From positions 1,081,538-1,145,537 of the forward strand of contig CAVZFU010000005.1 in the NCBI GenBank assembly GCA_963774685.1: a stretch of DNA of 64,000 nt, given 5' to 3'. Both the position numbers and the translations under genes were made by a program. The DNA comes from an uncultured Alphaproteobacteria bacterium (GTDB lineage: Bacteria; Pseudomonadota; Alphaproteobacteria; Rhizobiales; Xanthobacteraceae). The notes below the pieces were generated by a model. It was given only the letters and a program-made list of their open reading frames with translations. It made no database searches and had not been told where the DNA came from. Shown in pieces: positions 39,028 to 59,824 of the stretch; positions within the stretch are counted from its first letter, which is position 1; every line of letters starts with the position of its first letter.

Positions 39028-39068
39028 CGCTTATCTGGCGACCGTGTTCATCGGCCAACGCGCCGATG

Positions 39069-39133
39069 ATAGCCGAGGGCAACTATATGATAGTTTTTGC
39101 ATATTTGACGGACCGGATGCGGTAGCGCTCCAT
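39069..39133 (+). promoter_or_regulatory. Tandem LysR-type boxes and promoter for panB-like copy 1
   Basis: ATAG-N7-CAAC (39069) and ATAG-N7-ATAT (39090), 21 bp apart, abutting TTGACG-N17-CTCCAT. Confidence 0.6.
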
Positions 39134-39222
39134 GCGCCTGCAACAGAAACGGCCGGGCGGCGAAGGTCGCTGCCGGCTTCTTCAAGGCTTTCGAAATAGG
39201 CTTTGTGAGTGGGGGATTGGTT

Positions 39223-40131
39223 ATGGCTGACGTACCGGCACGGAAGAAGGTCACCATCAACACCTTGATGGCGAAGATGAAGAAGGGCGAGCCGATCACC
39301 CAGCTTGCCGCGTACGATTATCGCACTGCGGTCGTTGCCGACCGCCTTGGCATGGATATCCTGTGCGTATCCGATACCGGCGGCATGATCCTGTTCGGCC
39401 ACAAGAGCACCGTCTCGGTGAGCTTCGACGAAGTCATGATGATGTCGAAGGCGATCGACCGCGGCTCCAAATACGGGCTGCGCATGGTCGACATGCCGTA
39501 TTGGAGCTTCCACGTCTCGCCGGAACAGGCGGTGGCCAATGCCGGCCGCTTCGTGCACGAAGCCAATGCCGAAGTGATGAAATGCGAGGGAAACAAGCAT
39601 CACGCCAGGAATATCGAGGCGATCGTGCGCGCCGGGATCCCGGTGCAGGGCCACATCGGCATCACTCCGATGCGGATGCCGCAGCTTGGCGGCTTCGTCG
39701 CCCAGGGCAAGACCGCCCAGCGCGCCAAGGAGATGGTGGAAGACGCCAAGGCGATGGTCGATGCCGGCTGCTTCTCGATCCTGTGCGAGGTCACGACGTC
39801 TGAAGTTGCCGAATATCTGGCGCAGACGCTGCCGGTGCCGGTCATCAGCCTCGGCGCGGGCAATGCCGCGCATGGCGTTCACATCATATCTTCGGATCTG
39901 TTCCATCTCTGGGAAGAGCATGTTCCGCGCCACTCGCGGATCTACACCGATCTGATCCCGATCATGGAAGACGTCATCTCGCGCTATATGAAGGATGTCG
40001 TTACCCGCAACTATCCCGGTCCGAAGGAAACCGTCTTCATGAGCCCGGAAGAGTGTCTGCTGTTCGCCCAGGACATGAAGTGGGAACGCAAGGTCGATGA
40101 ATTGAGGTCGGTGGCCAAAAAAACCGCCTGA
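39223..40131 (+). CDS. panB: Divergent 3-methyl-2-oxobutanoate hydroxymethyltransferase (PanB)-like, copy 1
   Basis: AAYD, VSDTGGM, VDMPY, KCEG, GHIGITP, GGFVAQGK, LCEV, GAG; no panC nearby. Confidence 0.8.
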   Translation: MADVPARKKVTINTLMAKMKKGEPITQLAAYDYRTAVVADRLGMDILCVSDTGGMILFGHKSTVSVSFDEVMMMSKAIDRGSKYGLRMVDMPYWSFHVSPEQAVANAGRFVHEANAEVMKCEGNKHHARNIEAIVRAGIPVQGHIGITPMRMPQLGGFVAQGKTAQRAKEMVEDAKAMVDAGCFSILCEVTTSEVAEYLAQTLPVPVISLGAGNAAHGVHIISSDLFHLWEEHVPRHSRIYTDLIPIMEDVISRYMKDVVTRNYPGPKETVFMSPEECLLFAQDMKWERKVDELRSVAKKTA

Positions 40132-40275
40132 TCCCGGCTCCCCGCAGATAGCGTCACCAGCGATACTGGAAACGCACAATGGACAGCGTCTAGCCGCCGC
40201 CCGGTTGCTGGCGCTTGTCTAAAGGCTTCGAAAATCCTCGCTTCGCAGCATCCTTGAAGGACACTGGAACTTTCA

Positions 40276-41973
40276 ATGCCCGCATCACAACATCAGTCAC
40301 CGAAGTCCGACATCGAAATCTCGCAGTCCGCCCCGAAGCGGCGAATCGCGGATATCGCCAGCGAAAAGCTTGGCATTGCGGTGGAAAACCTCGAGCCCTA
40401 CGGCCACTACAAGGCCAAGATGTCGATGGACTACATCAAGTCGCTCAAGGACAAGCCGAGCGGCAAGCTGATCCTGGTGACGGCCATCAGCCCGACCCCG
40501 GCCGGTGAGGGCAAGACCACCACCACGGTAGGCCTCACCGACGCGCTCAACCATATCGGCAAGAAGGCGATGCTCTGCCTGCGCGAACCCTCGCTCGGTC
40601 CGTCCTTTGGCATGAAGGGAGGTGCCGCCGGCGGTGGTTATGCCCAGGTGATTCCCATGGAGGATATCAACCTCCACTTCACCGGCGACTTTCACGCCAT
40701 TACCTCGGCCCATAATCTGTTGTCCGCGCTGATCGACAATCACATCCACTGGGGAAATGCGCTCGGCATCGACAGCCGCCGGGTGGCCTGGCGCCGCGTC
40801 ATCGACATGAACGATCGCGCCCTGCGCGAGATCCTCTGTTCGCTCGGCGGCCCCGCCAACGGCTTTCCGCGCGAGGCTGGCTTCGACATCACCGTCGCGT
40901 CCGAGGTCATGGCGATCTTCTGTCTCGCCAGGGACCTTGATGACCTGAGGGAGCGGCTCGGCAACGTCATCATCGCCTATACCCGCGAGCGCAAGCCGAT
41001 CCGCGGCAAGGACATCAAGGCGCATGGCGCCATGACCGCGCTGCTGAAGGATGCGATCGCACCCAACCTCGTGCAGACGCTGGAAGGCACGCCCGCCTTC
41101 ATCCACGGCGGTCCGTTCGCCAACATCGCCCATGGCTGCAACTCGGTGGTCGCTACCTCGACGGCGCTGAAACTTGCCGACTATGTGGTCACGGAAGCCG
41201 GCTTCGGCGCCGACCTCGGCGCGGAGAAGTTCATCGACATCAAGTGCCGCAAGGCCGGTCTGGAGCCGTCCTGCGTGGTGATCGTCGCCACCATCCGCGC
41301 GCTCAAGATGCATGGCGGCGTCAAAAAGGAAGAACTCAAGAAGGAAGACCTCAAGGCGCTGGAAGCCGGCATGGCCAACCTGCGCCGCCATGTCGAGAAC
41401 ATAAAGAAATTCGGTCTGCCGGCGGTGATCTCGATCAACCGCTTCTCAGCCGACACCGACGCCGAGATCGCGCTGGTCAAGGAAAAGTGCAACGCGCTCG
41501 GCGTCGAAGCGGTGATGGCCGATCATTGGGCCCTGGGCGGCGAGGGCGCCGCTGACGTCGCCAGGGCGGTGGTCAAGACCATCGACGCCGGCGGCGGCAA
41601 GCTCAAGTTTCTCTACCCGGACGAGATGCCGCTGTTCGAGAAGATCGAAACCATCGCGCGCGAGATCTACCGCGCCAAGGAAGTCACCGCCGAGAGGTCG
41701 GTCAAGGATCAGCTCAAAACCTGGGAAGAGATGGGCTTCGGCAAGCTGCCGGTCTGCATCGCCAAGACCCAATACAGCTTCTCGACCAATCCGGACGCCA
41801 AGGGCGCACCGGTCGATCATATCATCAATGTGCGGGAGGTGCGGCTTTCGGCGGGTGCGGAATTCGTGGTGGCGGTATGCGGCGAGATCATGACCATGCC
41901 GGGCCTGCCCAAGCTGCCGGCCGCCGACTCAATCGACGTCGGCGCCGACGGCCGGATCGTCGGTCTGTTCTAG
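40276..41973 (+). CDS. fhs: Formate--tetrahydrofolate ligase
   Basis: [48 protein letters not shown]. Confidence 0.97.
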
Positions 41974-42080: not shown

Positions 42081-42989
42081 CTATTTCGCGTCGGCCAGAG
42101 CGCCCAGGGCGGCCATCTTAGTCGAAACCTTTATCTGCTGCTGCCATCGTTCGCAGGATCCGATCGTGTTGTACAGCAGCATCGATACCGTCATGGGGCC
42201 AACTCCGCCCGGCACCGGCGTGATGTAGGACGCCTTTGCCGCGACGCCTTCGAAGTCGACGTCGCCAACCAGGGTGCCGTCCGCCAGGCGATTGATGCCG
42301 ACATCGATAACCACAGCACCGGTGCGCACCATCTCGGGACTTATTAGTCTCGGCTTGCCAGCTGCCACGATCAGGATGTCGGCCAGGATGGTGAATTGCG
42401 CCAGATCCCGGGTCTTGGCGTGACAGATGCTGACGGTCGCCTCATGCTGCATCAGCATCAGCGCCATCGGCTTGCCGACGATGTTGCTGGCGCCGACCAC
42501 GACGACATTTCTGCCCTCGATCGGGATCCTTGCGTGTTCGAGCAGTTTCACCACGCCGAACGGGGTGCAGGGCGGAAACACCGTTCCGCCCGCCACCAGG
42601 CCGCCTACATTGTAGAGATGAAACCCATCGACATCCTTCTCGACCGAAATCGTGTGGAGTATTCGGGCAAGATCGAACGAGGCCGGCAGCGGCAGTTGGA
42701 CGAGAATGCCGTGAATAGACGGGTCCTGGTTGAGATCCTCGATCGTGTCGACGACGACTTGCTGGGACACGTCGAGCGGGAAACGGATCTCGCGCGAACG
42801 GATTCCAACGTCGTTGCAGGCGCGAATCTTGTTCCGTACATAAAGCTCCGAAGCGGGATCCGATCCGACGAGCACCACGGCGAGGCCTGGCGGCGTCCCG
42901 CCACGGGCGACAATGCGATCCACGCGCTCGCGGCATTCGCCGCGAATCTCGGCAGCGACGGCCTTACCATCGATAATGATTGCGGTCAC
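42081..42989 (-). CDS. folD: Methylene-THF dehydrogenase / cyclohydrolase (GTG start)
   Basis: IIDGK, GILVQLPLP, KDVDGFH, PCTP, SNIVGKP, GDVD, TPVPGGVGPMT. Confidence 0.96.
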   Translation of the reverse strand: MTAIIIDGKAVAAEIRGECRERVDRIVARGGTPPGLAVVLVGSDPASELYVRNKIRACNDVGIRSREIRFPLDVSQQVVVDTIEDLNQDPSIHGILVQLPLPASFDLARILHTISVEKDVDGFHLYNVGGLVAGGTVFPPCTPFGVVKLLEHARIPIEGRNVVVVGASNIVGKPMALMLMQHEATVSICHAKTRDLAQFTILADILIVAAGKPRLISPEMVRTGAVVIDVGINRLADGTLVGDVDFEGVAAKASYITPVPGGVGPMTVSMLLYNTIGSCERWQQQIKVSTKMAALGALADAK

Positions 42990-43059: not shown

Positions 43060-43944
43060 TCATTCCTTACTGACGCGCTTCGAGTAGGCTTCGATGAAGT
43101 CGGCAGCCGCCTTGCTGCCGCGGACGAAGGACTTCATCGCTTCCTCGTGCAGAAGTCCCAGTGCCTGCATCTTGATGGCATTGGCCTCATCGCTTTCCGT
43201 GATGTTTTCGACGTTGCGAGGTCGCGGCAGACTGACGTCGATGGAGGCGCGCACCTCGGTCGGGATGTTGGTCATGATCAGGATGCGATCGGCGAGATAG
43301 ATGGCCTCGTCGATATCCGTCGTCACGAAGAACGTCGTGCGCTGAAACTCGCTATAGAGATTGGCATAATATTCCTGCATCAGACGTTTCGTCATGGCGT
43401 CGAGCCCGCGAAATGGCTCGTCGAGGATCATGACGTTCGGCTCGTTGATCATGGCGCGGGCGAGCTCCGCACGCCGCTGCATGCCGCCGGAGAGCTGGGA
43501 CGGGTACTTCTTGCGGAACGCCCCGAGTCCCACTTTCTGCAGCAACATCTCTGCAAGATCGCGGGTCTCCGGGGTGTCCTGGCCGCGGGCGCGCGGGCCG
43601 TACATGATGTTGTCGTAAGTCGACATCCACGGAAAAAGTGCGGTTTCCTGGAACACGACCAGGCGATCGACGCCGGGTCCGGTCATCGGCTTGCCGTCGA
43701 CGGTAATGGTACCGCTGCTGGGACGTTCGAAGCCAGCCAGCAGCCGGATCAACGTGCTCTTGCCGCAGCCGGACGGGCCGATCATCACCGTCAGTTTGCC
43801 CCGCTCCAGCGTGAAGCTGCAGTTGTGGATGACCTGCTTGCCGAAATGCTCGGTGCCGTAGGATTTGCTGACGTTCCGGACGCTGATTTCGCTCCCGAGC
43901 GAAGCTCCACCGTTGGCCGCGAGAATGGGTGTCATTTGCTGCAT
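43060..43944 (-). CDS. ABC ATP-binding subunit (second; nitrate/sulfonate type)
   Basis: GPSGCGKST, LSGGMQRR, ILDEPF; switch reads VTTDIDEA (T in place of the usual H). Confidence 0.9.
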   Translation of the reverse strand: MQQMTPILAANGGASLGSEISVRNVSKSYGTEHFGKQVIHNCSFTLERGKLTVMIGPSGCGKSTLIRLLAGFERPSSGTITVDGKPMTGPGVDRLVVFQETALFPWMSTYDNIMYGPRARGQDTPETRDLAEMLLQKVGLGAFRKKYPSQLSGGMQRRAELARAMINEPNVMILDEPFRGLDAMTKRLMQEYYANLYSEFQRTTFFVTTDIDEAIYLADRILIMTNIPTEVRASIDVSLPRPRNVENITESDEANAIKMQALGLLHEEAMKSFVRGSKAAADFIEAYSKRVSKE

Positions 43945-43964
43945 TGTCCGGTTCCGACCGTCCT

Positions 43965-44786
43965 TCAGTCTTCGTTGAGCCAGGGCGTCATCCATTTGCC
44001 CAGCTTTCGCAGCGCCGCGCTGGAAATGTAGCCGGCAACGCCGATGCTGATCATGCCGGCGACGATTTGGGTGTATGATCCGCCCACGTAGGAATTCCAG
44101 ATAAAGAAGCCGAGCCCGCCGCCGGCGCCGCTGCCGCCGCCGGAAATCATTTCGGCGGCGACCACCACGGCCCAGGTGATGCCGACGCCGACCGTGGCGC
44201 CGACGGCCATCGACGGCAGGGTTGCCGGCAGAATGATGCGCCGGAAAATGTCCCAGGTGGATGAGCCCATCGAGCGAGCCGCCTGGAAATAGCGCACGTC
44301 AATCGCCTGGGCACCGCCGATCACATTGATGACGATGGTGAAGAACGCCCCGAGGAACGTCACGAACGCGATTGAGAGTTCCTGGGTAGGCCAGAAAATG
44401 ATCGACGCGGGAACCCAGGCCAGCGGCGGGATCGGTCGCAGCACCTCGAAAACCGGAAACGTGATTCCATAGAAGGTTCTGCTGACGGCCATGGCGAGGC
44501 CGAGCGGTATGCCGATCACCATCGCGGCGAAAAACCCTTCGAATACCCGCAAGGTGCTGAGAAGCGCGCTCTGCCAGAAGCTGGCTTCGTGAAACAGCGT
44601 GAACAGCTCCCGCATCACCGCGACCGGCGGCGGTATCTGGGAGATCCAGGGCAACGCAAACCCGAACCAGCTCAGCGAGCGCGATCCGGTTTCCCAGAAC
44701 ATCAGAAAAGCCAGGATCGCGACGATACCTCGCCAGAAATCCTCGCCGGTCACGAATCCGCCCGCCTTCAGGGACCAATTCATCAT
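43965..44786 (-). CDS. ABC permease (MsmH-like)
   Basis: LRPIPPLAWVP, AARSMG, VVAAEM. Confidence 0.88.
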   Translation of the reverse strand: MMNWSLKAGGFVTGEDFWRGIVAILAFLMFWETGSRSLSWFGFALPWISQIPPPVAVMRELFTLFHEASFWQSALLSTLRVFEGFFAAMVIGIPLGLAMAVSRTFYGITFPVFEVLRPIPPLAWVPASIIFWPTQELSIAFVTFLGAFFTIVINVIGGAQAIDVRYFQAARSMGSSTWDIFRRIILPATLPSMAVGATVGVGITWAVVVAAEMISGGGSGAGGGLGFFIWNSYVGGSYTQIVAGMISIGVAGYISSAALRKLGKWMTPWLNED

Positions 44787-45682
44787 CAGCGCTCCTTCTC
44801 GCCGGCGGCAAACGCCTTGATCGCTTCTTCGTGGACCGCGGCCGCGGTTTCGTCCATGAACTCGCGGAACCGCTTTGTCGTCAGCACCCCATAGTCCCGC
44901 GGATGCGGAATATCGATGTCGAGTATCTTCTTCGGCCGGCAGGGCCGGCTCGTCATGATCACGACGCGGTGGCCGAGAAAGATCGCTTCTTCCAGGTCGT
45001 GCGTAATGAAGAAGATGGTGACGCGATTCTTGTAGAAGATCTCGAGCAGGGCCTCGTGCATCACCGACTTGGTGAGCGAATCAAGCGCGCGATAGGGTTC
45101 GTCGAGCAACAACACCTTGGGGTCCGTCATCAGCGCGCGTACGATCTCGACCCGGCGGCGAACGCCGGACGAAGTTTCGCCGGGATAATCGCTTTCGATG
45201 TCGCGCAGCCCGGCATCCGCCATCATGTAACGGGCCTTATCGTATGCTTCGGCCTTGGTCATGGTTCCCTGCATGATCGGTCCGAAGGCCACGTTTTCGA
45301 TATTGGTCTTCCACGGAAACAGCGCGCCGTTCTGGAAGACAACGATCCGATCCGGGCCGGGCTCGGCCTGGAGCTTGCCGGGGCCGCACAGCATCTGGTC
45401 GTCGAGATAAATGCTGCCGGACGACAGGCTGTGAAAACCGGCGATGGCATTGAGAAGTGTCGTTTTGCCGCAACCGGAGGGGCCGACCACGACGGTGATT
45501 TCCCCGGGCGGGACGTCGAATGTGCAGTGGTCGACCGCCAGAATGCCGCCGCCTTGCGTGCCGTAGGTCTTGACCGCGTCGACGATGCGAACGCCGCCTT
45601 TGCGCACGATCTCGGGATGTGTCGCAGGCCATGGGCCTTGCGCCGGGGAGGCGCCCGGGGGTGCCGATGGCTGGATGTTCAT
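44786..45682 (-). CDS. ABC ATP-binding subunit (MsmG-like)
   Basis: GPSGCGKTT; signature TSSGVRRR; LLDEPY; ITHDLEEA. Confidence 0.88.
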   Translation of the reverse strand: MNIQPSAPPGASPAQGPWPATHPEIVRKGGVRIVDAVKTYGTQGGGILAVDHCTFDVPPGEITVVVGPSGCGKTTLLNAIAGFHSLSSGSIYLDDQMLCGPGKLQAEPGPDRIVVFQNGALFPWKTNIENVAFGPIMQGTMTKAEAYDKARYMMADAGLRDIESDYPGETSSGVRRRVEIVRALMTDPKVLLLDEPYRALDSLTKSVMHEALLEIFYKNRVTIFFITHDLEEAIFLGHRVVIMTSRPCRPKKILDIDIPHPRDYGVLTTKRFREFMDETAAAVHEEAIKAFAAGEKER

Positions 45683-46596
45683 CTGTCTGCTCCGAGCGCG
45701 AGTTCTCGGGTGCGCCATTGCATCATGTAGTCGCCGAGCATGCGGATCGCGGCACTGGTGAGGTATCCGACGAGTCCAAGCGTTGCCATCGCGATGACGA
45801 TCGTCGGATAGCGAACCATCGTGTAGGAGGTGTTGATGAGGTAGCCCAAGCCGTACTGCCCGGAGACCATTTCACCGGCGACGAGCGAGAACCACGCCAC
45901 GCCGATTGAAATCTGCAACCCGGTGAAAATGAACGGCAACGCCGCCGGCACGATGACTTGGCGGAAGACCTGCCAGCGGTTGGCGCCGAGACAGCTTGCC
46001 GCCCGAATATAGGACACGTCGATGGATTCGACGCCGAGCATGGTGTTGAGCGCGGTCGCGTAGAACGATGCCAGGAAGGTCAGGAAAATGACCGGCGTTT
46101 CGGATCCCTGGAACATGACGATCGCGAGCGGCACCCATGCCAGCGGCGGCACCGGCCGCAGCAATTCGAAAACCGGAAAGACATACTGCTTGAACCGTTG
46201 CGACCAGCCGAGAAACAGCCCGAGCGGGACGCCGATCGCGGTGGCGAGAAAGAACGCTATCGCAATGCGCCGCGTGCTCACCCAGATGTGGAGGTAGTAT
46301 TCGGGGGTGAAGACCGACAGGCCGTAGACCGGATTCCGGCTGAACCATTCACGCAGGACCGCGGTCGGTCCGGGCATCTCGGCGAAGCGAGGCAGCTTCC
46401 ACACTTCCACGGCGAAGTACCAGAAGCCGAGAAACAGAGTGAATCCGATCAGCATCAGGTACGGCCGCGGGCTTCGCAGCCAAAGCGACAAGCGATACAT
46501 CGCGACCGCCAGTGGCGTCTGCTTGCGCGAAGGATGGCTGCCCGTTGCCGGCCCCGCGTTAAGTCCTGGAATGTCAGACGCCGCTGTTTCGCTCAT
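45679..46596 (-). CDS. ABC permease (MsmF-like)
   Basis: LRPVPPLAWVP, AASCLGA, LVAGEM. Confidence 0.88.
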   Translation of the reverse strand: MSETAASDIPGLNAGPATGSHPSRKQTPLAVAMYRLSLWLRSPRPYLMLIGFTLFLGFWYFAVEVWKLPRFAEMPGPTAVLREWFSRNPVYGLSVFTPEYYLHIWVSTRRIAIAFFLATAIGVPLGLFLGWSQRFKQYVFPVFELLRPVPPLAWVPLAIVMFQGSETPVIFLTFLASFYATALNTMLGVESIDVSYIRAASCLGANRWQVFRQVIVPAALPFIFTGLQISIGVAWFSLVAGEMVSGQYGLGYLINTSYTMVRYPTIVIAMATLGLVGYLTSAAIRMLGDYMMQWRTRELALGADR

Positions 46597-46670
46597 ATAG
46601 CTTGTCCTGCTGTAACTAGCCTTGGTCGTGTCCGCTCCGGTTCAGGAGGCTCGCAGAGAACTTGATCTGG

Positions 46671-46728
46671 CGTTTGCCGGGCGGGCGCTTTCTGTCGCGG
46701 CGGATTCCAGCAACCCGCCCGGCAAACG
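46671..46728. other. Intercistronic stem-loop after the binding-protein gene
   Basis: CGTTTGCCGGGCGGG ... CCCGCCCGGCAAACG, a 15-bp perfect inverted repeat. Confidence 0.7.
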
Positions 46729-46732
46729 ACGT

Positions 46733-47911
46733 TCATTTGTCGGTGTACATCTCAACCGGAAGCGCCTTGACCTGCCCCACCGGAGCTTTCAGGCCATGCG
46801 CCTTGAGAATTTCGTCGGTAAATTGCGGTACGACCGCTTCGGGCCGGATTTCCGCCTGGATGCTCTTGATTTCGACCAGGAATTTGGAGGCCTTTTGAAT
46901 CAGCTCATTCGCCTCAGGGGTAAATCCGTAAGGCAGCGTGATACGGATATCGGTGCCGCCCTCGGATGCCGGCGTCTGCCCGAATGCCGACGACCACAGC
47001 GCCTTCTCGGTGAAGCCGGTGGTCTGGCTGGTGGCCATCCTTGCGACATCCATCGCATTCTTGGGATCGACGAAATACTGAGCGGCATCGAGCTCGGCCT
47101 CAAGCCACGCCTTGACGACGTCGGGCCGCTGCTCGATCAGGGCTTGCGGCATCACCATGAAGCCTCCATCGCGCTCGTTGACCGAGACGCCGGACGCAAC
47201 CCTGCGTGCAAGCCCCTCCTGAACGAGGCGCGACGCCGTCGGCTCCCAGATTACGGCGGCGTCCAGTTTGCCGGCGCGCAAGCCGCTGGTGATGACCTCG
47301 ATGCTTTGATTGAGGTATTCCGATGGCGTGATTCCGCGTTCCTTGAACACGGCCTGTGCGAACCGGTCGGTGCAGCTTCCTTTCGGAACCGCGACAATCT
47401 TGCCGTTCAGCCACTTCAACGCTTCATCGGGTGTCTTGAACTGCGGCGCGTCGGGGCGGGTCAGAAAGATATTGCATTGGTCGAAGCCGAGGCCGAGCAC
47501 GGAGACGATGCGGACGTCACGGACTTCCGGATGGCTGGTGGAAACAATCCCGGGCATGTCGCCGACGTAGCCAACGTCGACCTTTCCGGCGAGCATTCCG
47601 TTGACGATAATCGCGCCCTGCAGGCCGATCTGGAAGCTGACATTAGAGCCCTTGGGCAAGTATTTCTCATAGAACTTCTTGTCCCGCATGATCATGCCGG
47701 TCCATGATTCCGTGTAATACGGCTGGTAGCCGATCACGAGTTCGATCGGTTCCCCCGGTTTGCCGTATGCCTTTGACGCGGCCGCGTTAGCGGGCCCGGT
47801 GCCGGCGACAAGCGCCCCGATTGACCACAAACCGGCCAGCAAAAGGCCGAGTGCCCATCCTGATGTCGCAGAGCGCGCGGCGCGTGCGGCTCCCTGGTGC
47901 TTATGTTGCAT
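46733..47911 (-). CDS. ABC substrate-binding protein (MsmE/SsuA-like)
   Basis: Signal peptide; IGYQPY; GKVDVGYVGDMP; GKIVAVPKGS; AAVIWEP. Confidence 0.85.
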   Translation of the reverse strand: MQHKHQGAARAARSATSGWALGLLLAGLWSIGALVAGTGPANAAASKAYGKPGEPIELVIGYQPYYTESWTGMIMRDKKFYEKYLPKGSNVSFQIGLQGAIIVNGMLAGKVDVGYVGDMPGIVSTSHPEVRDVRIVSVLGLGFDQCNIFLTRPDAPQFKTPDEALKWLNGKIVAVPKGSCTDRFAQAVFKERGITPSEYLNQSIEVITSGLRAGKLDAAVIWEPTASRLVQEGLARRVASGVSVNERDGGFMVMPQALIEQRPDVVKAWLEAELDAAQYFVDPKNAMDVARMATSQTTGFTEKALWSSAFGQTPASEGGTDIRITLPYGFTPEANELIQKASKFLVEIKSIQAEIRPEAVVPQFTDEILKAHGLKAPVGQVKALPVEMYTDK

Positions 47912-51626: not shown

Positions 51627-51646
51627 GACGCTCGCAAGGCCTGCGA

Positions 51647-52414
51647 TTGATCCGGCGGGATGGCAGTCGGTGCGAGCGCTTGATCTCGATGGTCTTGCGC
51701 AAGGCGAGGGCGGAGACCCTCAATCTCATACAGTGGCTGGCCCGGGTCGCGAACAGTTACGTGCCTGCCGGTTTCCCAGAAGGGCGGCAGCAGCTCGAGT
51801 ACCGGGCCGCCACCGCGACCTTCCTCACCAGGCCTTTCGATAAGGACCTGACCCTCGCCTTGCAGATGCCGACTCTTGAAATGCAATTTCACGGGCACAG
51901 AAAGGCGGAGCCGCATATTTTCGATCCCGAAGAACGCTCGCCGGCGGAAGCCGAGGCGTGGCTGCTGGTCGAACTTCTGCATCGCGGAGTCGATACCGCA
52001 AGGTTCTCGAAAAAGCTGCCCTACGATATTCCCGGTTTGATGACCGGCGATGCCGCTGACCATTCGCCGCAATCGTGTCAACACGCCTTGACGCAATTGA
52101 CCGCCTGGTTTCGCAAGGCGGCAGCGATACTTGATGCCGCGGCCTGGACCTCGGACACCGAACAGACCTGCATTGTCTGCTGGCCGCAGACGCTCAGCCT
52201 CTCATGCGCGTCGAAGGGCGGATCGGCGCGCCCCGACATCGGATTTTCGCCGGGCGATGCGGATCACAACGAGCCGTATTTCTACCGGGGTCATCGGGCG
52301 AGCAACGGACCTGGGACTCGCAAGGGCCGCTCGATTTTGACGGCGTCGGAACTGCTGGCTGCCAGCGATCCGGCCGCCACGGCATTCGGCTTTCTGACCA
52401 CCGCGGCAACGTGA
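51647..52414 (+). CDS. Hypothetical protein, directly after msmD
   Basis: 255 aa ORF; C-terminal WP...GFSPGD..EPYFY is reminiscent of DUF5996-like proteins. The start is uncertain (ATG 51689 possible). Confidence 0.6.
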   Translation: MIRRDGSRCERLISMVLRKARAETLNLIQWLARVANSYVPAGFPEGRQQLEYRAATATFLTRPFDKDLTLALQMPTLEMQFHGHRKAEPHIFDPEERSPAEAEAWLLVELLHRGVDTARFSKKLPYDIPGLMTGDAADHSPQSCQHALTQLTAWFRKAAAILDAAAWTSDTEQTCIVCWPQTLSLSCASKGGSARPDIGFSPGDADHNEPYFYRGHRASNGPGTRKGRSILTASELLAASDPAATAFGFLTTAAT

Positions 52415-52431
52415 ACCTCGGATCGCGGACC

Positions 52432-53403
52432 CTAGACCGCGGTTTTCCGATTCTTGATCGGCCCGTCATAGACGGTGGCGTGATCGCCCTCGATGCGTTT
52501 GCGCAATTCGCCCGACTTGTTCATCGTGCGCACGGCGGATATGAACGCACCAGCCATCGGCAACACGATCTCTCCTTCGGTCCAGAACAGGCCGACCTCC
52601 TGACTGACGGTCGGACTGATCAGCGGTATCGCGCGCGTTCCGCGATGCAGCCCGGGCGCGTGGGCGAAGTGCGATGGGATAATGGTGCAAAGCTCGGTGA
52701 ATTGAACCTGGAACATCAGGTGCAAAATCGATTCGGATTCGATTTGAGCCTCCGGCTTGCAGCCGACGCTGGCGAACACCTGGTCGACAAACCGGCGCTC
52801 ATGCATCGAGGGACGCAGCATCGCCAGCGGATACTTCGCTGCATCCTTCCAGGTGATGGTCTTGCGATTCTGGAATTCGGCCGTATCGGGAACCAGCAGG
52901 CTCAATTGCTCGGTGTAGATCGGCAAGGTGTTCTTGCGTCCGAGATCCGCCTTGTCGAGATAGGTCATCGCGACATCGAGCGCGAAATTGTTAAGTCCGA
53001 GCTTCATCGCCTCGTTGCCGATGAATTGCACGTCGACGCGCAGGCCGGGATATTTCTCCCGCAGGCCCTGCAGCATGAACGGCAGCACCGGCGACATCGA
53101 GGGCATCACACCCATGCGCAAATGGCCGGTCAGGTTATTCTTCATGACCTCGATTTCTTTACGCATCGCGTCACAATGCGCCAACACCGCACGCGACCAT
53201 ATCGCAACGCGCTCGCCTTCCGCCGTCAGCCCCTGAAAGCGCTGGCCGCGACCGCGCAGAAAGATCGGAACGCCAAGCTCCAGCTCCAATTGTGTTATGC
53301 CGCTGGAAAGGCTGGGTTGGGTGACGTTGCAGCGCTGGGCGGCGCGGCCGAAATGGCGTTCTTCCGCAACGGCAACCAGATAGCGAAATTGCCTGAGAAA
53401 CAT
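52432..53403 (-). CDS. LysR family regulator
   Basis: RQFRYLVAVAEERHFGRAAQRCNVTQPSLSSGITQLE. Confidence 0.95.
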   Translation of the reverse strand: MFLRQFRYLVAVAEERHFGRAAQRCNVTQPSLSSGITQLELELGVPIFLRGRGQRFQGLTAEGERVAIWSRAVLAHCDAMRKEIEVMKNNLTGHLRMGVMPSMSPVLPFMLQGLREKYPGLRVDVQFIGNEAMKLGLNNFALDVAMTYLDKADLGRKNTLPIYTEQLSLLVPDTAEFQNRKTITWKDAAKYPLAMLRPSMHERRFVDQVFASVGCKPEAQIESESILHLMFQVQFTELCTIIPSHFAHAPGLHRGTRAIPLISPTVSQEVGLFWTEGEIVLPMAGAFISAVRTMNKSGELRKRIEGDHATVYDGPIKNRKTAV

Positions 53404-53456
53404 GGATAGGCTCGGTGCGACGCTGGACCTGAAATCACGATAGCGGAAATTTCAGA

Positions 53457-53471
53457 ATAGACCAGATGTAT
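53457..53471. promoter_or_regulatory. LysR-type box between lysR and tauE
   Basis: ATAG-ACCAGAT-GTAT; a further ATAG at 53488. Confidence 0.5.
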
Positions 53472-53556
53472 CGAGTCGGACGAGACGATAGGCACGGTAT
53501 TGTTTGTTGCGACGCACAACGCATGATCCGCGCGCGAAGGAAGTGGGGCGACGTCA

Positions 53557-54315
53557 GTGGCAATATCGAGTCTGATTTGGATATCGCTCCTGGGACTGAC
53601 TTCCGGCCTGATGATCGGATGCGTCGGCATTGGCGGCGTGATCCTGGTACCGGCGCTGGTGTTTCTTGCCGACATTCCGATCGAGACCAGCATTCCGGCG
53701 GCGCTGATGGCCTACGTGCTGCCCGGCCTCGTCGCGACAATCGTGTTTGCGCGTAACAAATCCATCCGTTGGGACATCGCGACATGGCTGTGCGTGGGCG
53801 CGGTGCCGACCGCGTTTGTCGGGGCGTGGGCGGTCAGCGTCGTCAATCCCCGATTACTGGAGGCGTGTCTCGGCCTTCTGACATTCCTGTCGGGCCTCAA
53901 TTCGCTAAGGACACAAAGCGCGGCCGGCAAACTCGAGTGCGTTCCGTCCAGCACGCGGCTGCTTGTCGTCGGAGCGGTGACCGGGTTTCTGTCGTCGATC
54001 ACCGGCACAGGGGGTCCCCTGGTGCTGGTGTCGATCGTCATTTCCATGAGCGTGCCGGTGCTGGTCGCGGTCGGGCTGAGCCAGGTGATTCAGCTTCCGG
54101 TGGCGATCGTCGCAACCTTCGGTAATCTGCTCTACGGACAGCTTGACTTTGAGTTGGGCGGCGTTCTGGCGGTGTCCTTGACCATCGGATCCTGGTACGG
54201 GGCAAAGCTTGTCCACGCCGTGCCGCGCACGACCTTGCACTGGATCGTATCGGTCGTGCTCGTGGTGGTAGGCGCTTTCATTCTTGGAAATGTCATTTGG
54301 CGGCTGTGGAAGTAA
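53557..54315 (+). CDS. TauE/SafE (TSUP) sulfite exporter family
   Basis: GCVGIGGVILVP and SITGTGGPLV internal repeat; about 8 TMs. Confidence 0.88.
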   Translation: MAISSLIWISLLGLTSGLMIGCVGIGGVILVPALVFLADIPIETSIPAALMAYVLPGLVATIVFARNKSIRWDIATWLCVGAVPTAFVGAWAVSVVNPRLLEACLGLLTFLSGLNSLRTQSAAGKLECVPSSTRLLVVGAVTGFLSSITGTGGPLVLVSIVISMSVPVLVAVGLSQVIQLPVAIVATFGNLLYGQLDFELGGVLAVSLTIGSWYGAKLVHAVPRTTLHWIVSVVLVVVGAFILGNVIWRLWK

Positions 54316-54318
54316 GCG

Positions 54319-55338
54319 ATGGCGCTGGAAGGATTTAAGCTTATCTACGATTTCGGCGACCCCGCAGCCGAGGCGAAGACATGCCGGACGGACTGTGCGC
54401 TGTTCGATTTCTCCTTCCTGGAATGTGCGCGGCTTGCCGGGAATCGCGCGTGCGACCTCATCGAGAGGTTCACCGGAAGGTCAATGGCCACGTTGAGGGA
54501 AAACGAGATATTTTATGCCTTGCGCGTTGATTCCGACGGCCGAATAACTGCCGATTGGACCGTGTGGAAGATCGCTGAGAATTCGTTCGATGTGATGAGC
54601 GGGCGCCGCGAGGATATTCTGGATTTGCTCGCGTGCTCCGGTCCGGGCGTTGCCGTCGTCGACATGACGGCGGATCGAGCGACGTTCGCGCTGCAGGGTC
54701 CCCGTGCGCTGGATATGTTGCGCAAACTCGGCGACGTCGGTCACATCGGCTCGCTCAAATACTTCACGTTCGACCACGCCCGTCTTGCGGGCATTCCCTG
54801 CACGATTGGTCGGCTCGGCTATACCGGGGAGCCCGGCTTCGAGATCATCGCAGAGCAGGGGAAAGCGCGCGATCTGTGGGACGCATTGTCCGCCCGTGTC
54901 GCCGCCGCGGGATTCATTGCGGCCGATATCCTGCGCATCGAGGCTGGCTTTATTCTGTTCAGCAATGAGTTCCGGCTACCCGTGTCGCCCTCTGAAGTCG
55001 GTCTTGGGAAATTCAGCCGTCCCGTCGATCCGCTTGAACCCGCCATAAAGCTGGTCTCGTTCCTCGCCGATGCGCAACCCCAGTCGTGGCCCTGGCGGCC
55101 GTCGCGCGACCTGCAGCGGCCCTCCGGGCTCGGGGCAATCGCGGTGACGTCGGCCTGCCAAAGCGTTGCGGCCGGCGGAATTCTCGGTCTTGGCTATGTC
55201 CTCGCCGAAGCATCGCCCGACACGGTTCTGCGCGATGAAGCAGGCAACTTCCGCAATATTCGTTTGGCGCCGAGGCCATTTTACGACACCGCAAAACAAC
55301 GTCCTCGCGAGCCCTGGCAGCAATCAGGCGACCGGTAA
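54319..55338 (+). CDS. Stand-alone GcvT-like folate-binding aminomethyltransferase family protein
   Basis: ALFDFS, GRITAD, FALQGPRA, RLGYTGEPGFEI, LRIEAG; no gcvH/P in the window. Confidence 0.85.
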   Translation: MALEGFKLIYDFGDPAAEAKTCRTDCALFDFSFLECARLAGNRACDLIERFTGRSMATLRENEIFYALRVDSDGRITADWTVWKIAENSFDVMSGRREDILDLLACSGPGVAVVDMTADRATFALQGPRALDMLRKLGDVGHIGSLKYFTFDHARLAGIPCTIGRLGYTGEPGFEIIAEQGKARDLWDALSARVAAAGFIAADILRIEAGFILFSNEFRLPVSPSEVGLGKFSRPVDPLEPAIKLVSFLADAQPQSWPWRPSRDLQRPSGLGAIAVTSACQSVAAGGILGLGYVLAEASPDTVLRDEAGNFRNIRLAPRPFYDTAKQRPREPWQQSGDR

Positions 55339-55349
55339 TCGCGGTGATC

Positions 55350-55414
55350 ATAGCCCGGGGCAACTATAAGATAGCTTTTGCGTATTTGACGGACCGGAGG
55401 CCGCAGCGCCCAAT
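55350..55414 (+). promoter_or_regulatory. Tandem LysR-type boxes and promoter for metF (homologous to the panB leaders)
   Basis: ATAG-N7-CAAC (55350), ATAG-N7-GTAT (55371), TTGACG-N17-CCCAAT. Confidence 0.6.
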
Positions 55415-55576
55415 GTTCCCGCAAACGAGAAGCGGCGGATTGGCGTTCACCGCTGCCGGGTTCTGCAAGACCATTTGGAGCGATTGCTACCTCGAAAACT
55501 CCCAATCCCCGCTGACGATGTCGCCGAGGACGATGGTTTCGCCATGCGGAGCTATGGCATTGAGAGACCGCCGCCC

Positions 55577-56458
55577 ATGACGATGGAATCGCGCGCGCAG
55601 CGAAACTCGACAGCAAACTGCGTCTCGTCATTGATGCAGGATCTTTCCATAGAGGCCACGCTGCCAAACCAAATGGAATTGGAGTCGCTGCGCGACATCC
55701 TTCCCTCTACGACTCAGATCTTTGTTGCAGCTCCACCGGGTCGTCCGTATTTGCGGCTGGTAGAAACGGCAATACAAATTCGCAAAGCCGGTTTTGAACC
55801 GGTTCCGCATATCGCGGCCCGAAATTATGAATCTCTGAAAGCCCTCGGCGACTTCGTCGCGCGGATATGCGGCGAATCCGGTGCGCGACGGGTTTTGGTA
55901 ATTGCCGGCGATGTCGATCGCCCGGCGGGACCATTTTTGGGGGCCAACGCGGTCATCGAGAGTGATCTCCTGCAGCGCTACGGAATTCGCGAGATCGGGG
56001 TCTCCGGATACCCGGACGGCCATCCGAAGCTAAGCGACGCAATTGTAATCGGTGCTCTGAGACGAAAGCTGAATTCGGCAAAGGAGAGAAATCTAAAGGT
56101 AACAATTGTCTCTCAACTGTGTTTTGACGCGGACCAAATCACCGCTTGGGTGAAGTCGTTGCGGAGCTCGGGCATCAGTGTGCCAGTTAGTATCGGTCTC
56201 GCAGGGCCGACAAGCATCAGAGGACTGGCGCGTTTTGCCTTAATGTGCGGTGTGCGCAATTCTTTCAAGGCATTTGTCGACGGCAAGACAAGTCAACTCT
56301 TCGGCGAAGCGTCGCCGGGCGACATCATCCATGACCTCAGCGAAGCCCTCGATCTATCGATGCCGGGGCAAATTTCCCTGCACCTCTACGCGTACGGCGG
56401 TCTGGTCCGAACGGTGAACTGGGCAAAGGATTTTCAAACTCGTTTCGGGGACGTTTAG
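55577..56458 (+). CDS. metF: Methylenetetrahydrofolate reductase-like
   Basis: PVPHIAAR, VIAGD, SGYPDGHP, SQLCFD, GLAGP, LHLYAYGG. Confidence 0.85.
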   Translation: MTMESRAQRNSTANCVSSLMQDLSIEATLPNQMELESLRDILPSTTQIFVAAPPGRPYLRLVETAIQIRKAGFEPVPHIAARNYESLKALGDFVARICGESGARRVLVIAGDVDRPAGPFLGANAVIESDLLQRYGIREIGVSGYPDGHPKLSDAIVIGALRRKLNSAKERNLKVTIVSQLCFDADQITAWVKSLRSSGISVPVSIGLAGPTSIRGLARFALMCGVRNSFKAFVDGKTSQLFGEASPGDIIHDLSEALDLSMPGQISLHLYAYGGLVRTVNWAKDFQTRFGDV

Positions 56459-56490
56459 CGTGAGCGCGGCTCCGGGCGTAGGCCCGAGCC

Positions 56491-57569
56491 GCCAACGCGC
56501 CGATGATAGCCGAGGGCAACTATATGATAGTTTTTGCATATTTGACGGACCGGATGCGGTAGCGCTCCATGCGCCTGCAACTGAAACGGCCGGGCGGCGA
56601 AGGTCGCTGCCGGCTTCTTCAAGGCTTTCGAAAACTAGGCTTGTGAGTGGGGGATTGGTTATGGCTGACGTACCGGCACGGAAGAAGGTCACCATCAACA
56701 CCTTGATGGCGAAGATGAAGAAGGGCGAACCGATCACCCAGCTTGCCGCGTACGATTATCGCACTGCGGTCGTTGCCGACCGCCTTGGCATGGATATCCT
56801 GTGCGTATCCGATACCGGCGGCATGATCCTGTTCGGCCACAAGAGCACCGTCTCGGTGAGCTTCGACGAAGTCATGATGATGTCGAAGGCGATCGACCGC
56901 GGCTCCAAATACGGGCTGCGCATGGTCGACATGCCGTATTGGAGCTTCCACGTCTCGCCGGAACAGGCGGTGGCCAATGCCGGCCGCTTCGTGCACGAAG
57001 CCAATGCCGAAGTGATGAAATGCGAGGGAAACAAGCATCACGCCAGGAATATCGAGGCGATCGTGCGCGCCGGGATCCCGGTGCAGGGCCACATCGGCAT
57101 CACGCCGATGCGGATGCCGCAGCTTGGCGGCTTCGTCGCCCAGGGCAAGACCGCCCAGCGCGCCAAGGAGATGGTGGAAGACGCCAAGGCGATGGTCGAT
57201 GCCGGCTGCTTCTCGATCCTGTGCGAGGTCACGACGTCTGAAGTTGCCGAATATCTGGCGCAGACGCTGCCGGTGCCGGTCATCAGCCTCGGCGCGGGCA
57301 ATGCCGCGCATGGCGTTCACATCATATCTTCGGATCTGTTCCATCTCTGGGAAGAGCATGTTCCGCGCCACTCGCGGATCTACACCGATCTGATCCCGAT
57401 CATGGAAGACGTCATCTCGCGCTATATGAAGGATGTCGTTACCCGCAACTATCCCGGTCCGAAGGAAACCGTCTTCATGAGCCCGGAAGAGTGTCTGCTG
57501 TTCGCCCAGGACATGAAGTGGGAGCGCAAGGTCGATGAATTGAGGTCGGTGGCCAAAAAAACCGCCTGA
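56491..57569 (+). repeat. Direct repeat copy 2 (panB-like gene plus promoter)
   Basis: See copy 1; LysR-type boxes at 56506 and 56527, TTGACG at 56542. Confidence 0.95.
56661..57569 (+). CDS. panB: Divergent PanB-like, copy 2
   Basis: Translation is identical to copy 1 from MADVPARKK onward. Confidence 0.8.
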   Translation: MADVPARKKVTINTLMAKMKKGEPITQLAAYDYRTAVVADRLGMDILCVSDTGGMILFGHKSTVSVSFDEVMMMSKAIDRGSKYGLRMVDMPYWSFHVSPEQAVANAGRFVHEANAEVMKCEGNKHHARNIEAIVRAGIPVQGHIGITPMRMPQLGGFVAQGKTAQRAKEMVEDAKAMVDAGCFSILCEVTTSEVAEYLAQTLPVPVISLGAGNAAHGVHIISSDLFHLWEEHVPRHSRIYTDLIPIMEDVISRYMKDVVTRNYPGPKETVFMSPEECLLFAQDMKWERKVDELRSVAKKTA

Positions 57570-57646
57570 GTTACGGTGGCGCATGAAGCCGCGCCAACAA
57601 GCAACTCTGACGTTCTGACGGAATAAGAAAAATTTTGGGAGAAGCA

Positions 57647-59071
57647 ATGGATCTCGCGGTCATTCATAACGGTGTGGCCGCTCCTGCGGCCAGCGAAGCG
57701 GTGCGGCTCAACATTCCAGGGCGGCTCGAGCGCTTGCCGATGACGGCGTATCAAAAGCGGATGTTTGCGATTGTTGCCACCGCGTGGCTCGCCGATCAGG
57801 TGGACGTTGCGCTGCTGGTATTTCTGGTCGGCGCTCTTAAAAACTATTTCAATCTTACGGCAGTGCAGATCGGTTTTCTTTCGTCGATGACCTTCCTCGG
57901 CCAGCTCGTCGGCAATCTGCTGATTGGCTCGATCTCCGACCTGTACGGCCGTCGCATAGCTTTTCAAAGCACGATGGTGATTTGGGGCGTTGCGAGCTTC
58001 CTGGCCGCGGGTGCGTGGGACGTCACCTCGCTCATGGTGTTCCGTTTCCTCATTGGAGTCGGTGTTGGTGGCGAAGCGCCGGTCGCGCAGGCTGTTCTGT
58101 CGGAGATTATTCCCGCGAATGTGCGTGCAAAATATATCGCATTTATGGAGGGATTTTGGGCGGTCGGCTTCGTCATCTCCGGCACGATCGCCTATACGGT
58201 GCTGCCCTACGCCGGGTGGCGTTGGGTTTTCGTGGTGGTCGGCATGTTCTCGTTGGTGGTATTTTGGGTGCGCCGCAGTTTGCTCGAATCGCCACGCTGG
58301 TTAGCGGATCATGGTCGGTACGCCGAAGCAGAGCAGGTCATGTCCGAGATCGAGGCCGGCGTTCAGAAAGCCAGCGGGGTCAAGCTCGCAGCAGCCAAGC
58401 CATTTCTTGCAGAAACCTCGCTCGAGACCCGAAATCCGCTCGGCGTGTTGTTTTCGCGGTTCTATCTGCGCGCCAATACCATGATCTTCAGCGTATGGTT
58501 TTTTGCGCTGCTCGGCTATTTCGGCCTGACGTCATGGCTCGGCATTATTCTGGGCGAGCATGGATTTTCTATCGTGACGTCGATTGGATTCATAACCCTG
58601 ATCACGCTCGGCGGTATTCCAGGGTTTTATAGTGCTGCCTTGCTGCTGGAGCGGATCGGGCGAAAGCCGACCACTGCCGTGTTTCTCTTCGCAAGCGCCT
58701 TGATGGCCTATGTGTATGGTCACGCGACGAATGACGTGATGTTGTTCTGCAGCGGCTTCGTCATGCAGTTCTTCATGTTCGGAATGTGGTCTTGCCTTTA
58801 TGCCTATACACCCGAGCTCTATCCAACGCGGGCGCGGTCGACTGCGGCCGGGATGGCGTCTGCCTTTGGTCGATTGGGTGCGATAACCGGGCCGATTGTG
58901 GTCGGCTATATTATCAGCTCGGTTGGCGCGACCGGCGTGTTTACATTGGGCGCCATGAGTTTCGTGATCGCCGCACTTATCGTGCTGATTCTCGGCATCG
59001 AGACCAGGGGCCGTACGCTGGAAGAGATTTGCCGCGAAGAGGAAGTGGTTGGTCTGCATTCAGCGGCTTAG
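57647..59071 (+). CDS. MFS transporter (organic acid / sugar-porter-like)
   Basis: RLERLP, SDLYGRR, ESPRWL, ELYPTRARSTAAG, IETRGRTLE. Confidence 0.9.
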   Translation: MDLAVIHNGVAAPAASEAVRLNIPGRLERLPMTAYQKRMFAIVATAWLADQVDVALLVFLVGALKNYFNLTAVQIGFLSSMTFLGQLVGNLLIGSISDLYGRRIAFQSTMVIWGVASFLAAGAWDVTSLMVFRFLIGVGVGGEAPVAQAVLSEIIPANVRAKYIAFMEGFWAVGFVISGTIAYTVLPYAGWRWVFVVVGMFSLVVFWVRRSLLESPRWLADHGRYAEAEQVMSEIEAGVQKASGVKLAAAKPFLAETSLETRNPLGVLFSRFYLRANTMIFSVWFFALLGYFGLTSWLGIILGEHGFSIVTSIGFITLITLGGIPGFYSAALLLERIGRKPTTAVFLFASALMAYVYGHATNDVMLFCSGFVMQFFMFGMWSCLYAYTPELYPTRARSTAAGMASAFGRLGAITGPIVVGYIISSVGATGVFTLGAMSFVIAALIVLILGIETRGRTLEEICREEEVVGLHSAA

Positions 59072-59125
59072 AGACCTTCACCCCCGGGGCCTGGCTGTGT
59101 CCGATAGCTCATTGGATTATCTGCA

Positions 59126-59824
59126 ATGATCGACAAAGACGACGTTGACAAGGAGCGGGCCTTGCCTGTTCGCGTCACTGATGAAGTCGATCCTGCGGTT
59201 TCAGGTATTTACGCAGAGGATGGCGCCGCCAATCATCGGGATGTGATGCAGTGGCGAAAGGCGGAGAGGGCCCGATTAATCGACGAACGACTTCAGGTTA
59301 GCGCCGATACACGCAAGAAAAACTCCGATTTCATCGCAGGGCACCTCGACGTGGCGATTGGTGATCCATGCGGGCGCGTCGTGAGTGGATATTGGCCGTT
59401 CCGCGGCGAGCCCGATTTGCGTGAATGGCTCGAAGGCCTGGAAGGCCGCGGCGGCCGATGTGCGTTGCCAGTGGTTATTGAGGCGAAAGCGCCCCTGGTC
59501 TTCCGCATCTGGAAACGGGGCGAGAAGCTGGAGCGAGGTGTGTGGGACATTCCCGTGCCAGCCGCCGGGGAAGAGGTGTGCCCGGACGTCGTCATTGCAC
59601 CGATCGTTGGCTATGATCGAGATGCATACAGGCTTGGGTATGGTGGCGGATATTTCGACAGGACACTCGCCGTCATGCAGAAGCGGCCGCTGGTCATCGG
59701 TGTTGGGTACAGCCACGCCGCAATACCGACAATCTACCCCAAGCTACATGATATTCCGATGGACAAGATTGTGACGGAACGGGGGATTGTTCTTCCTGCG
59801 AGGAGCAGGGCGCAATGCAGTTAG
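59126..59824 (+). CDS. 5-formyltetrahydrofolate cyclo-ligase
   Basis: YWPFRGEPDL, IAPIVGYD...RLGYGGGYFDRTL, HDIPMDKIVTE. Confidence 0.92.
   Translation: MIDKDDVDKERALPVRVTDEVDPAVSGIYAEDGAANHRDVMQWRKAERARLIDERLQVSADTRKKNSDFIAGHLDVAIGDPCGRVVSGYWPFRGEPDLREWLEGLEGRGGRCALPVVIEAKAPLVFRIWKRGEKLERGVWDIPVPAAGEEVCPDVVIAPIVGYDRDAYRLGYGGGYFDRTLAVMQKRPLVIGVGYSHAAIPTIYPKLHDIPMDKIVTERGIVLPARSRAQCS

Follow-up and report, generated by a model that had tools for sequence, protein, structure and literature searches.

Methanesulfonate (MSA) is a major atmospheric sulfur product that is rained onto soil and sea. The closest described relatives of the locus reported here are the msmABCD and msmEFGH genes of Methylosulfonomonas methylovora M2 and Filomicrobium Y and W, which share with it a four-component oxygenase encoded in the order A-B-C-D, a long X26 spacer in the Rieske motif of MsmA and a divergent SsuA-type importer with an extra ATPase (PMC4433239). 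The X26 spacer has been treated as specific to the MsmA of proven MSA degraders (PMC4433239). In Filomicrobium Y, Henriques and De Marco (2015) tabulated a LysR regulator, TauE, a 'glycine cleavage T protein' and a '3-methyl-2-oxobutanoate hydroxymethyltransferase' beside msm, with a one-line comment (PMC4433239, Table 1), and the LysR-TauE-GcvT-PanB neighborhood is also present in our locus. The packaging itself is therefore not new, this core neighborhood having been on record for Filomicrobium since 2015. We analyzed a 64,000-nt stretch of DNA (the window) from contig CAVZFU010000005.1 of assembly GCA_963774685.1, a soil Bradyrhizobium-like genome of the family Xanthobacteraceae. Positions 39054-59824 of the window hold msmABCD with an importer, a TauE/SafE sulfite exporter and a set of folate enzymes, and we consider that, on balance, the whole represents an acquired catabolic island for MSA that works by the mechanism proposed below. 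The locus differs from those of M2 and Filomicrobium in its non-methylotroph-like host, which is without the tetrahydromethanopterin (H4MPT) route, in the duplication of panB as direct repeats, and in the addition of FolD, Fhs, a type-4 methylene-tetrahydrofolate (methylene-THF) reductase (MTHFR), an MFS transporter and 5-formyl-THF cyclo-ligase (MTHFS); the Filomicrobium cluster adjoins SoxCD.

Oxygenase, importer and exporter genes

The original prediction for this DNA had named msmABCD with a 26-residue Rieske spacer, a divergent ABC importer, TauE/SafE, fhs, folD, metF and 5-formyl-THF cyclo-ligase. All of these except metF, which is taken up below, were recovered as named in our feature map of 39054-59824, which was built from the open reading frame (ORF) listing and family scans. 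The oxygenase, transport and regulatory genes are:

43060-47911, minus strand: sulfonate-type ABC importer, five genes (family scans)
43060-43995, minus strand: importer ATPase
43965-44786, minus strand: importer permease
44786-45718, minus strand: importer ATPase
45679-46596, minus strand: importer permease
46733-47911, minus strand: importer binding protein, SsuA-like
48293-49564, plus strand: msmA, hydroxylase alpha subunit, Rieske motif CPH-X26-CMFH
49680-50160, plus strand: msmB, hydroxylase beta subunit, frame break at about 50079-50082
50218-50580, plus strand: msmC, Rieske-type ferredoxin, CXH-X17-CXXH
50594-51626, plus strand: msmD, reductase with Fer2, FAD and NAD domains, frame break at about 51025-51040
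51610-52414, plus strand: conserved msm-linked gene without a Pfam family, frame break at about 51700
52432-53403, minus strand: lysR, LysR-family regulator, divergent from tauE
53557-54315, plus strand: tauE, TauE/SafE sulfite exporter (PF01925, 131.4 bits against a gathering score of 32.6)

The Rieske signature of MsmA begins at C93 and has the long-spacer form CXH-X26-CXXH. The protein is 82-85% identical to sequences from Filomicrobium, Hyphomicrobium, Methylobacterium and Hansschlegelia, genera with proven MSA degraders. The msm genes follow the order alpha, beta, ferredoxin, reductase and encode the expected domains, with one frame break each in msmB and msmD in the assembly. The importer is of the msmEFGH type with an extra ATPase, and it forms a divergent operon with an SsuA/NMT1-type binding protein and two permeases. 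Only 3 nt separate tauE from the gcvT-like gene that follows it.

Distribution of the locus

Msm had been described as known from a few methylotrophs, a picture that is too narrow, since we found 260 MsmA relatives among species-representative genomes. We compared the loci of the best 80 of these 260 and counted a gene as adjacent when it lay within 10 kb of msmA. These 80 MsmA homologs are 81-94% identical to the window MsmA and come mostly from uncultured soil Xanthobacteraceae and Pseudolabrys metagenome-assembled genomes (MAGs), and also from Hyphomicrobium, Filomicrobium, Methylobacterium, Hansschlegelia, Methylocella and others. An MsmA phylogeny, which the original prediction had proposed as a check, places the window MsmA within a soil Xanthobacteraceae clade that carries the folate-enzyme module.

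The genes adjacent to msmA in the 80 loci were lysR (64), tauE (61), the gene directly 3' of msmD (60), the importer (about 50), the GcvT-like and PanB-like genes (44), folD (33) and fhs (4); MTHFR and MTHFS genes were adjacent in none. LysR neighbors are 61-92% identical across the 64 loci, and the importer gene order is the same in 50/80, as it is in Filomicrobium Y (PMC4433239). Usually, folD and the importer point away from msmABCD, which is followed by the gene 3' of msmD, lysR on the opposite strand, tauE, gcvT, panB and sometimes fhs; the core of this arrangement recurs in about 44 of the 80 loci. The msm genes thus form a package with TauE and folate enzymes, both in their physical linkage and in their evolution.

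A JGI metagenome contig (L135), found by a search with the MTHFR, is collinear with window positions 49403-59826 at 87-88% nucleotide identity. All of its genes are intact, and their order, gcvT-MTHFR-panB-MFS-MTHFS, matches that of the window; a molybdenum sulfite-oxidase-like gene comes next. Less common is the fuller toolkit with Fhs, type-4 MTHFR and MTHFS, which one metagenome contig shares. Downstream of the module, L135:10861-13496 holds the molybdenum sulfite-oxidase-like gene and a YeiH-family membrane protein; in a second msm locus, L001:18255-21269, we read by eye AprB/AprA-like genes with a membrane anchor at the corresponding side of the module.

Folate enzymes of the island

The remaining genes of the island are:

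39223-40131 (coding sequence, CDS), plus strand: PanB-like gene 1, inside direct repeat copy 1 (39054-40131)
40276-41973, plus strand: fhs, formate-tetrahydrofolate ligase (PF01268, 905 bits; NF010030, 936 bits against a cut-off of 652)
42081-42989, minus strand: folD, island copy (NF008058, 371 against a cut-off of 355)
54319-55338, plus strand: GcvT-like gene, stand-alone folate-binding protein (PF01571, 161 bits)
55329-55424, plus strand: third leader box copy, upstream of the MTHFR gene, 77% identical to the panB leaders
55475-56458, plus strand: type-4 (S6MTHFR-like) MTHFR homolog, probable CDS start at about 55577
56661-57569 (CDS), plus strand: PanB-like gene 2, inside direct repeat copy 2 (56491-57569)
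57635-59071, plus strand: MFS transporter, aromatic-acid/H+ symporter type, 96% identical to its L135 counterpart
59126-59824, plus strand: MTHFS (TIGR02727, 131 bits against a cut-off of 84.9)

The original prediction had missed the GcvT-like protein, the twice-present PanB-like paralog, the unknown-fold protein encoded 3' of msmD and the S6MTHFR type of its 'metF', and it did not list the lysR gene or the MFS transporter.

FolD, Fhs and MTHFS all score above the cut-offs of their curated family models. The fhs gene is the sole copy in the host genome, and the island FolD is 47-49% identical to the two other FolD copies of the genome and 69-85% identical to the FolD encoded beside msm importers in 33 loci.

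The GcvT-like protein scored 132 bits with the GcvT profile, 107 with Tdm, 70 with DmdA and 27 with LigM. Its nearest families are GcvT, followed by Tdm, SoxA and DmdA, and its nearest PDB entries are GcvT, dimethylglycine oxidase (DMGO) and Tdm, which places it by sequence closer to the makers of methylene-THF (GcvT, Tdm, DMGO and SoxA) than to the methyl-transferring DmdA and LigM. It falls below every equivalog cut-off (PRK00389, 132 bits against 300; TIGR00528, 99 against 236, with residues 4-231 aligned), and the ORF and family scans detected neither gcvH nor gcvP in the island. By these profile scores, the protein is classed as a member of the GCV_T fold family only. In dimethylglycine oxidase, sarcosine oxidase and Tdm, GcvT-fold domains turn nascent formaldehyde into methylene-THF. 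The island resembles these systems in placing a GcvT fold beside a formaldehyde-releasing oxidation, and it differs from them in that the GcvT-like protein stands alone (339 aa), is not fused to the oxidase and shares an apparent operon with a sulfite exporter.

The 'metF' of the original prediction was borne out as an MTHFR homolog at 55475-56458, but not as a canonical metF, which lies elsewhere in the host genome. The closest PDB entry is S6MTHFR (7xg9; E 1.6e-55), compared to 2.6e-11 for the canonical MTHFR of T. thermophilus. Enzymes of the S6MTHFR type are marked by three specific motifs, in the Leu48, Arg78 and Pro268 regions, and oxidize CH3-THF without the use of NADH (PMC11868366). 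In our alignment to S6MTHFR, Pro (not Gly) stands at the Leu48 position and, apparently, Asn at the Arg78 position. Catabolic THF-based one-carbon (C1) pathways with such enzymes are found in the ligM-metF-ligH genes of Sphingobium lignivorans SYK-6 and the cmu metF-folD-purU genes of Methylorubrum extorquens CM4 (PMC11868366). As in those systems, the island combines a GcvT-family protein, an S6MTHFR-type MTHFR and a formyl-THF enzyme (Fhs/LigH), which implies catabolic C1 flow via THF. However, the SYK-6 and CM4 pathways begin with methyl transfer to THF, whereas the C1 unit of the island should arise as formaldehyde; moreover, the GcvT-like protein of the island resembles GcvT, Tdm and DMGO more than LigM, and the MTHFR is missing from most msm loci.

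PanB-like paralog and direct repeats

The two direct repeats, at 39054-40131 and 56491-57569, are 1078 nt long, about 99.4% identical and 17,438 nt apart. Each comprises a 170-nt leader and a PanB-like gene and ends exactly at the stop codon. The leader of copy 1 carries the box ATAGCCGAGGGCAACTATATGATAG. The window has just three copies of a 25-nt box, ATAGCCNNGGGCAACTATANGATAG, one in front of each panB copy and one in front of the MTHFR gene; by chance, none would be expected. The shared box can also be written ATAGCC-N2-GGGCAACTATA. The LysR regulator together with this box, shared by the two panB leaders and the MTHFR leader, suggests a single regulon. A riboswitch in the shared leader was considered and rejected, as Rfam at gathering threshold matched only the tRNA in the window.

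PanB enzymes use methylene-THF as the hydroxymethyl donor. The island protein belongs to the fold family of PanB from E. coli (1m3u) and M. tuberculosis (1oy0) and, in our alignment, keeps D45, D84, K112, E114, H136 and E181 (E. coli numbering), which we take to be the Mg and catalytic residues of KPHMT. It scores 209 bits with TIGR00222, borderline against the cut-off of 207.55, and 249 with PRK00311, below the cut-off of 272. It differs from the housekeeping PanB of the genus, to which it is 33-37% identical, in being co-inherited with msm and in having no panC nearby, and by sequence it is classed as a distinct paralog. Across msm loci, the PanB-like protein is 85-95% identical and is the best-conserved protein of the cluster, and a canonical PanB co-occurs with it in 25/26 carrier genomes. 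In the host genome, the two msm-type copies are the only PanB homologs, and a housekeeping-type panB was not found; the canonical copy is present in 21/31 congeners.

Protein encoded 3' of msmD

A 267-aa protein family is encoded directly 3' of msmD in the 60 msmA loci counted above (for example, L001:13329-14132 and L135:2223-3026). Searches of Pfam and NCBIfam returned no family beyond a faint DUF5996 match. The AlphaFold2 model (pLDDT 89.7, pTM 0.87) has two helix-plus-sheet halves and gave no fold match in the PDB (best TM 0.15). Residues H102, E115, E121, H124 and D147 are invariant in the family, which suggests a metal site.

Formaldehyde and sulfite routes in the host genome

The absence from the island of glyA and of glutathione- or H4MPT-dependent formaldehyde genes, as originally predicted, extends in part to the whole genome. 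Mch, the marker of the H4MPT route, was not found in the host genome, nor was an S-(hydroxymethyl)glutathione dehydrogenase above cut-off (best match 310 bits against 544); glyA is present in one copy, on another contig. Four Oxidored_molyb proteins encoded elsewhere in the genome are candidate sulfite dehydrogenases. A further THF-linked C1 locus at C3:753084-756173 has a 1029-aa sarcosine-oxidase-alpha-like ORF near a second folD and an SsuA-like binding protein.

Genomic setting

The host genome is MAG-like, consisting of 6 contigs at 92.7% completeness. The left flank of the island is core sequence, in which otsA and a tRNA gene are kept in 30/30 same-genus genomes:

38722-38811, plus strand: tRNA-Ser(GGA), conserved core gene

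A search of 24 same-genus genomes with the msm DNA found it in none of them, and a search of 30 with the right flank (57600-61900) gave no substantial match. Since otsA and tRNA-Ser are conserved in congeners, and the msm DNA and the right flank are absent there, the island is foreign to its genus; it shows the tRNA adjacency and the absence from relatives with conserved flanks that characterize tRNA-associated islands. The 220 nt or so 3' of tRNA-Ser(GGA) (38812-39032) recur at 89% identity after tRNA-Ser(CGA), at C5:1050368-1050587 on the same contig, 70 kb upstream. This sequence is therefore core, which sets the island junction at 39033-39054, the start of the left repeat. The island thus begins about 240 nt past tRNA-Ser, and its start coordinate, 39054, is the exact start of that repeat. 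The post-tRNA element also occurs at several loci in other genomes of the genus, being either conserved or dispersed.

Synteny with one relative returns only at C5:1206023, so that the variable region is about 85 kb long. The original prediction of a portable cassette holds in that the island is foreign to its genus, but it carries no mobility gene: no integrase or tyrosine recombinase was found (no PF00589 match in C5:1120396-1206023), and the window repeat search revealed no att repeats, the panB copies being the sole repeats found. The variable region runs about 60 kb past the window (C5:1145537-1206023). Frame breaks hamper crude ORF calling in this part of the island and on C3, and functions there were read by eye. 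In C5:1145537-1206023 we noted a class-V aminotransferase resembling serine-glyoxylate aminotransferase, a thiamine pyrophosphate (TPP) enzyme, another NMT1-like binding protein, MFS transporters and an IclR regulator.

Frame breaks in the assembly

The frameshifts in msmB and msmD, flagged by the original prediction, are real features of the assembled sequence when it is compared to relatives. Compared to L001 and L135, msmB lacks 2 nt at about 50079-50082 and msmD has 1 extra nt at about 51025-51040; the gene after msmD has 1 extra nt at about 51700, and all comparators agree on the three breaks. A programmed +1 frameshift in msmB, in the context AGGATCGAG-TAA-C that is loosely prfB-like, was rejected because L001, L135 and six other relatives are in frame with 2 more nt and the assembly is rich in indels.

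We estimated the background rate from 376 kb of the closest relative, which is 85-87% identical in nucleotide sequence, by aligning its ORFs of 250 aa or more to the host genome, where the sampled region was C5:761000-1112500. The aligned coding DNA, 187 kb in all, showed 49 distinct frame-switch junctions, or about 1 per 3.8 kb, some of them in proteins that are 96-99% identical, and the canonical metF (C5:262445-263294) is also split by a frame break. Three breaks in the roughly 14.5 kb of comparable island DNA are the number that this rate predicts, and on that basis we regard the three frameshifts as quite likely to be assembly indel errors. The msmB and msmD breaks are indistinguishable from the background indel rate, so the oxygenase genes can be called neither intact nor broken from the assembly. 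The original prediction had named true pseudogenes of msmB and msmD as a finding that would speak against it; with breaks at this frequency assembly-wide, that status cannot be assumed, and any 'pseudogene' call in this genome needs read support.

Proposed mechanism

From this gene content and its conservation, both of them observed, we infer a route in which the ABC importer would take up MSA and MsmABCD would hydroxylate its methyl group to give hydroxymethanesulfonate, which would yield formaldehyde and sulfite; hydroxymethanesulfonate is a reversible but stable formaldehyde-bisulfite adduct (PMC6459274). The sulfite would be exported by TauE, and the molybdenum enzymes encoded elsewhere in the genome may serve as sulfite dehydrogenases. 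The most plausible agent for loading the C1 unit on THF, as 5,10-methylene-THF, would be the stand-alone GcvT-like protein; the PanB-like paralog may act on the same methylene-THF pool. FolD and Fhs could oxidize methylene-THF to formate with a gain of ATP, or GlyA could assimilate it into serine, and MTHFS and the type-4 MTHFR would keep the folate pool usable. In this scheme, the folate enzymes most likely handle the toxic formaldehyde, and the module would replace the H4MPT and glutathione routes that are missing from the host genome. It is also possible, though doubtful, that the PanB-like, GcvT-like and post-msmD unknown-fold proteins jointly carry out an undescribed THF-dependent step on hydroxymethanesulfonate or nascent formaldehyde, releasing sulfite and passing the hydroxymethyl group to THF or to a 2-oxo acid.

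Alternative explanations

Several observations weigh against an MSA island with folate-linked formaldehyde handling. The type-4 MTHFR would point to CH3-THF, which is no product of MSA oxidation, and the original proposal of disposal via THF chemistry, while upheld in that msm is packaged with TauE and folate enzymes (80 loci and L135), does not fit an S6MTHFR-type enzyme in a simple formaldehyde route. The role of the PanB-like protein is unexplained. An anti-correlation between the adjacent GcvT/PanB module and H4MPT, with Mch present in 7/25 genomes that have the module and in 21/25 without it (50 msm genomes; Fisher p = 1.5e-4), speaks for the proposed replacement, but phylogeny and MAG incompleteness both confound it. 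The three frame breaks fall within 1.7 kb (P about 0.1 for at least 3 in the 4.1-kb stretch from msmA to the unknown gene, so that the clustering is only mildly unusual), and none of them lies in a long homopolymer. Finally, true decay of an msm island exists in this lineage: in Bradyrhizobium sp. Ash2021 (L137, CP100604.1:5992243-6013220), another find of the MTHFR search, fragments of msmA, msmD and an importer ATPase gene and a split tauE, with transposases nearby, lie beside intact GcvT-like, PanB-like, MTHFS, type-4 MTHFR, FolD and FolC genes (gcvT-panB-MTHFS-MTHFR-folD-folC), and there the folate module outlives the oxygenase.

The last three of these observations would suit an island in decay, with genuine frameshifts in msmB, msmD and the gene after msmD, a loss of MSA oxidation and a folate module kept for another use. 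We consider this unlikely, as the assembly-wide rate of about one break per 3.8 kb of coding DNA, which strikes highly conserved genes, predicts the number seen, and as the genes, single indels aside, are full length and encode proteins 86-95% identical to those of L135. The persistence of the module without msm in Ash2021 is likewise what would be expected if the folate genes formed a separate THF-dependent demethylation pathway for some other methylated substrate, merely co-located with msm, in which the GcvT-like protein acts as a methyltransferase making CH3-THF and the type-4 MTHFR, FolD and Fhs oxidize it. A pairing of type-4 MTHFRs with THF-dependent demethylases, of which several belong to the GcvT family, has been reported (PMC11868366), and the MTHFR and panB genes share their upstream leader box. 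Such a pathway nevertheless seems rather improbable, because in 43 msm loci the GcvT-like gene occurs without any type-4 MTHFR within reach, in 44 it is coupled to tauE and the msm-linked lysR, and its profile scores for GcvT and Tdm are far above those for DmdA and LigM. An assembly mis-join at the repeat, which would account for the duplicated panB and the permuted gene order, could be suspected in an indel-rich, MAG-like assembly of 6 contigs whose left repeat begins exactly at the core-island junction. We regard it as highly improbable: the two copies differ at a few positions and have distinct unique flanks on either side, and the panB-fhs adjacency (L014, L022 and L045) and the MTHFR-panB-MFS adjacency (L135) are both seen in relatives, indicating that both junction types are natural. 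The gene order of the window has the look of a recombination product that joins, at panB, a 'panB-fhs' type to an 'MTHFR-panB-MFS-MTHFS' type.

Significance

The occurrence of 260 MsmA relatives indicates a much wider spread of msm genes among soil bacteria than would be guessed from the few degraders in culture. The handling of MSA-derived formaldehyde and sulfite by non-methylotrophs has yet to be explained, and this island, together with about 45 related loci from uncultured soil Xanthobacteraceae, points to a solution linked to folate in place of H4MPT. The GcvT-like, PanB-like and unknown-fold proteins provide three conserved, uncharacterized candidates for the missing C1-capture chemistry. 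If these three proteins did jointly carry out the undescribed THF-dependent step considered above, bacteria that lack the H4MPT and glutathione routes would possess a dedicated means of using MSA, and a new hydroxymethyltransferase activity would fall to the PanB-like protein.

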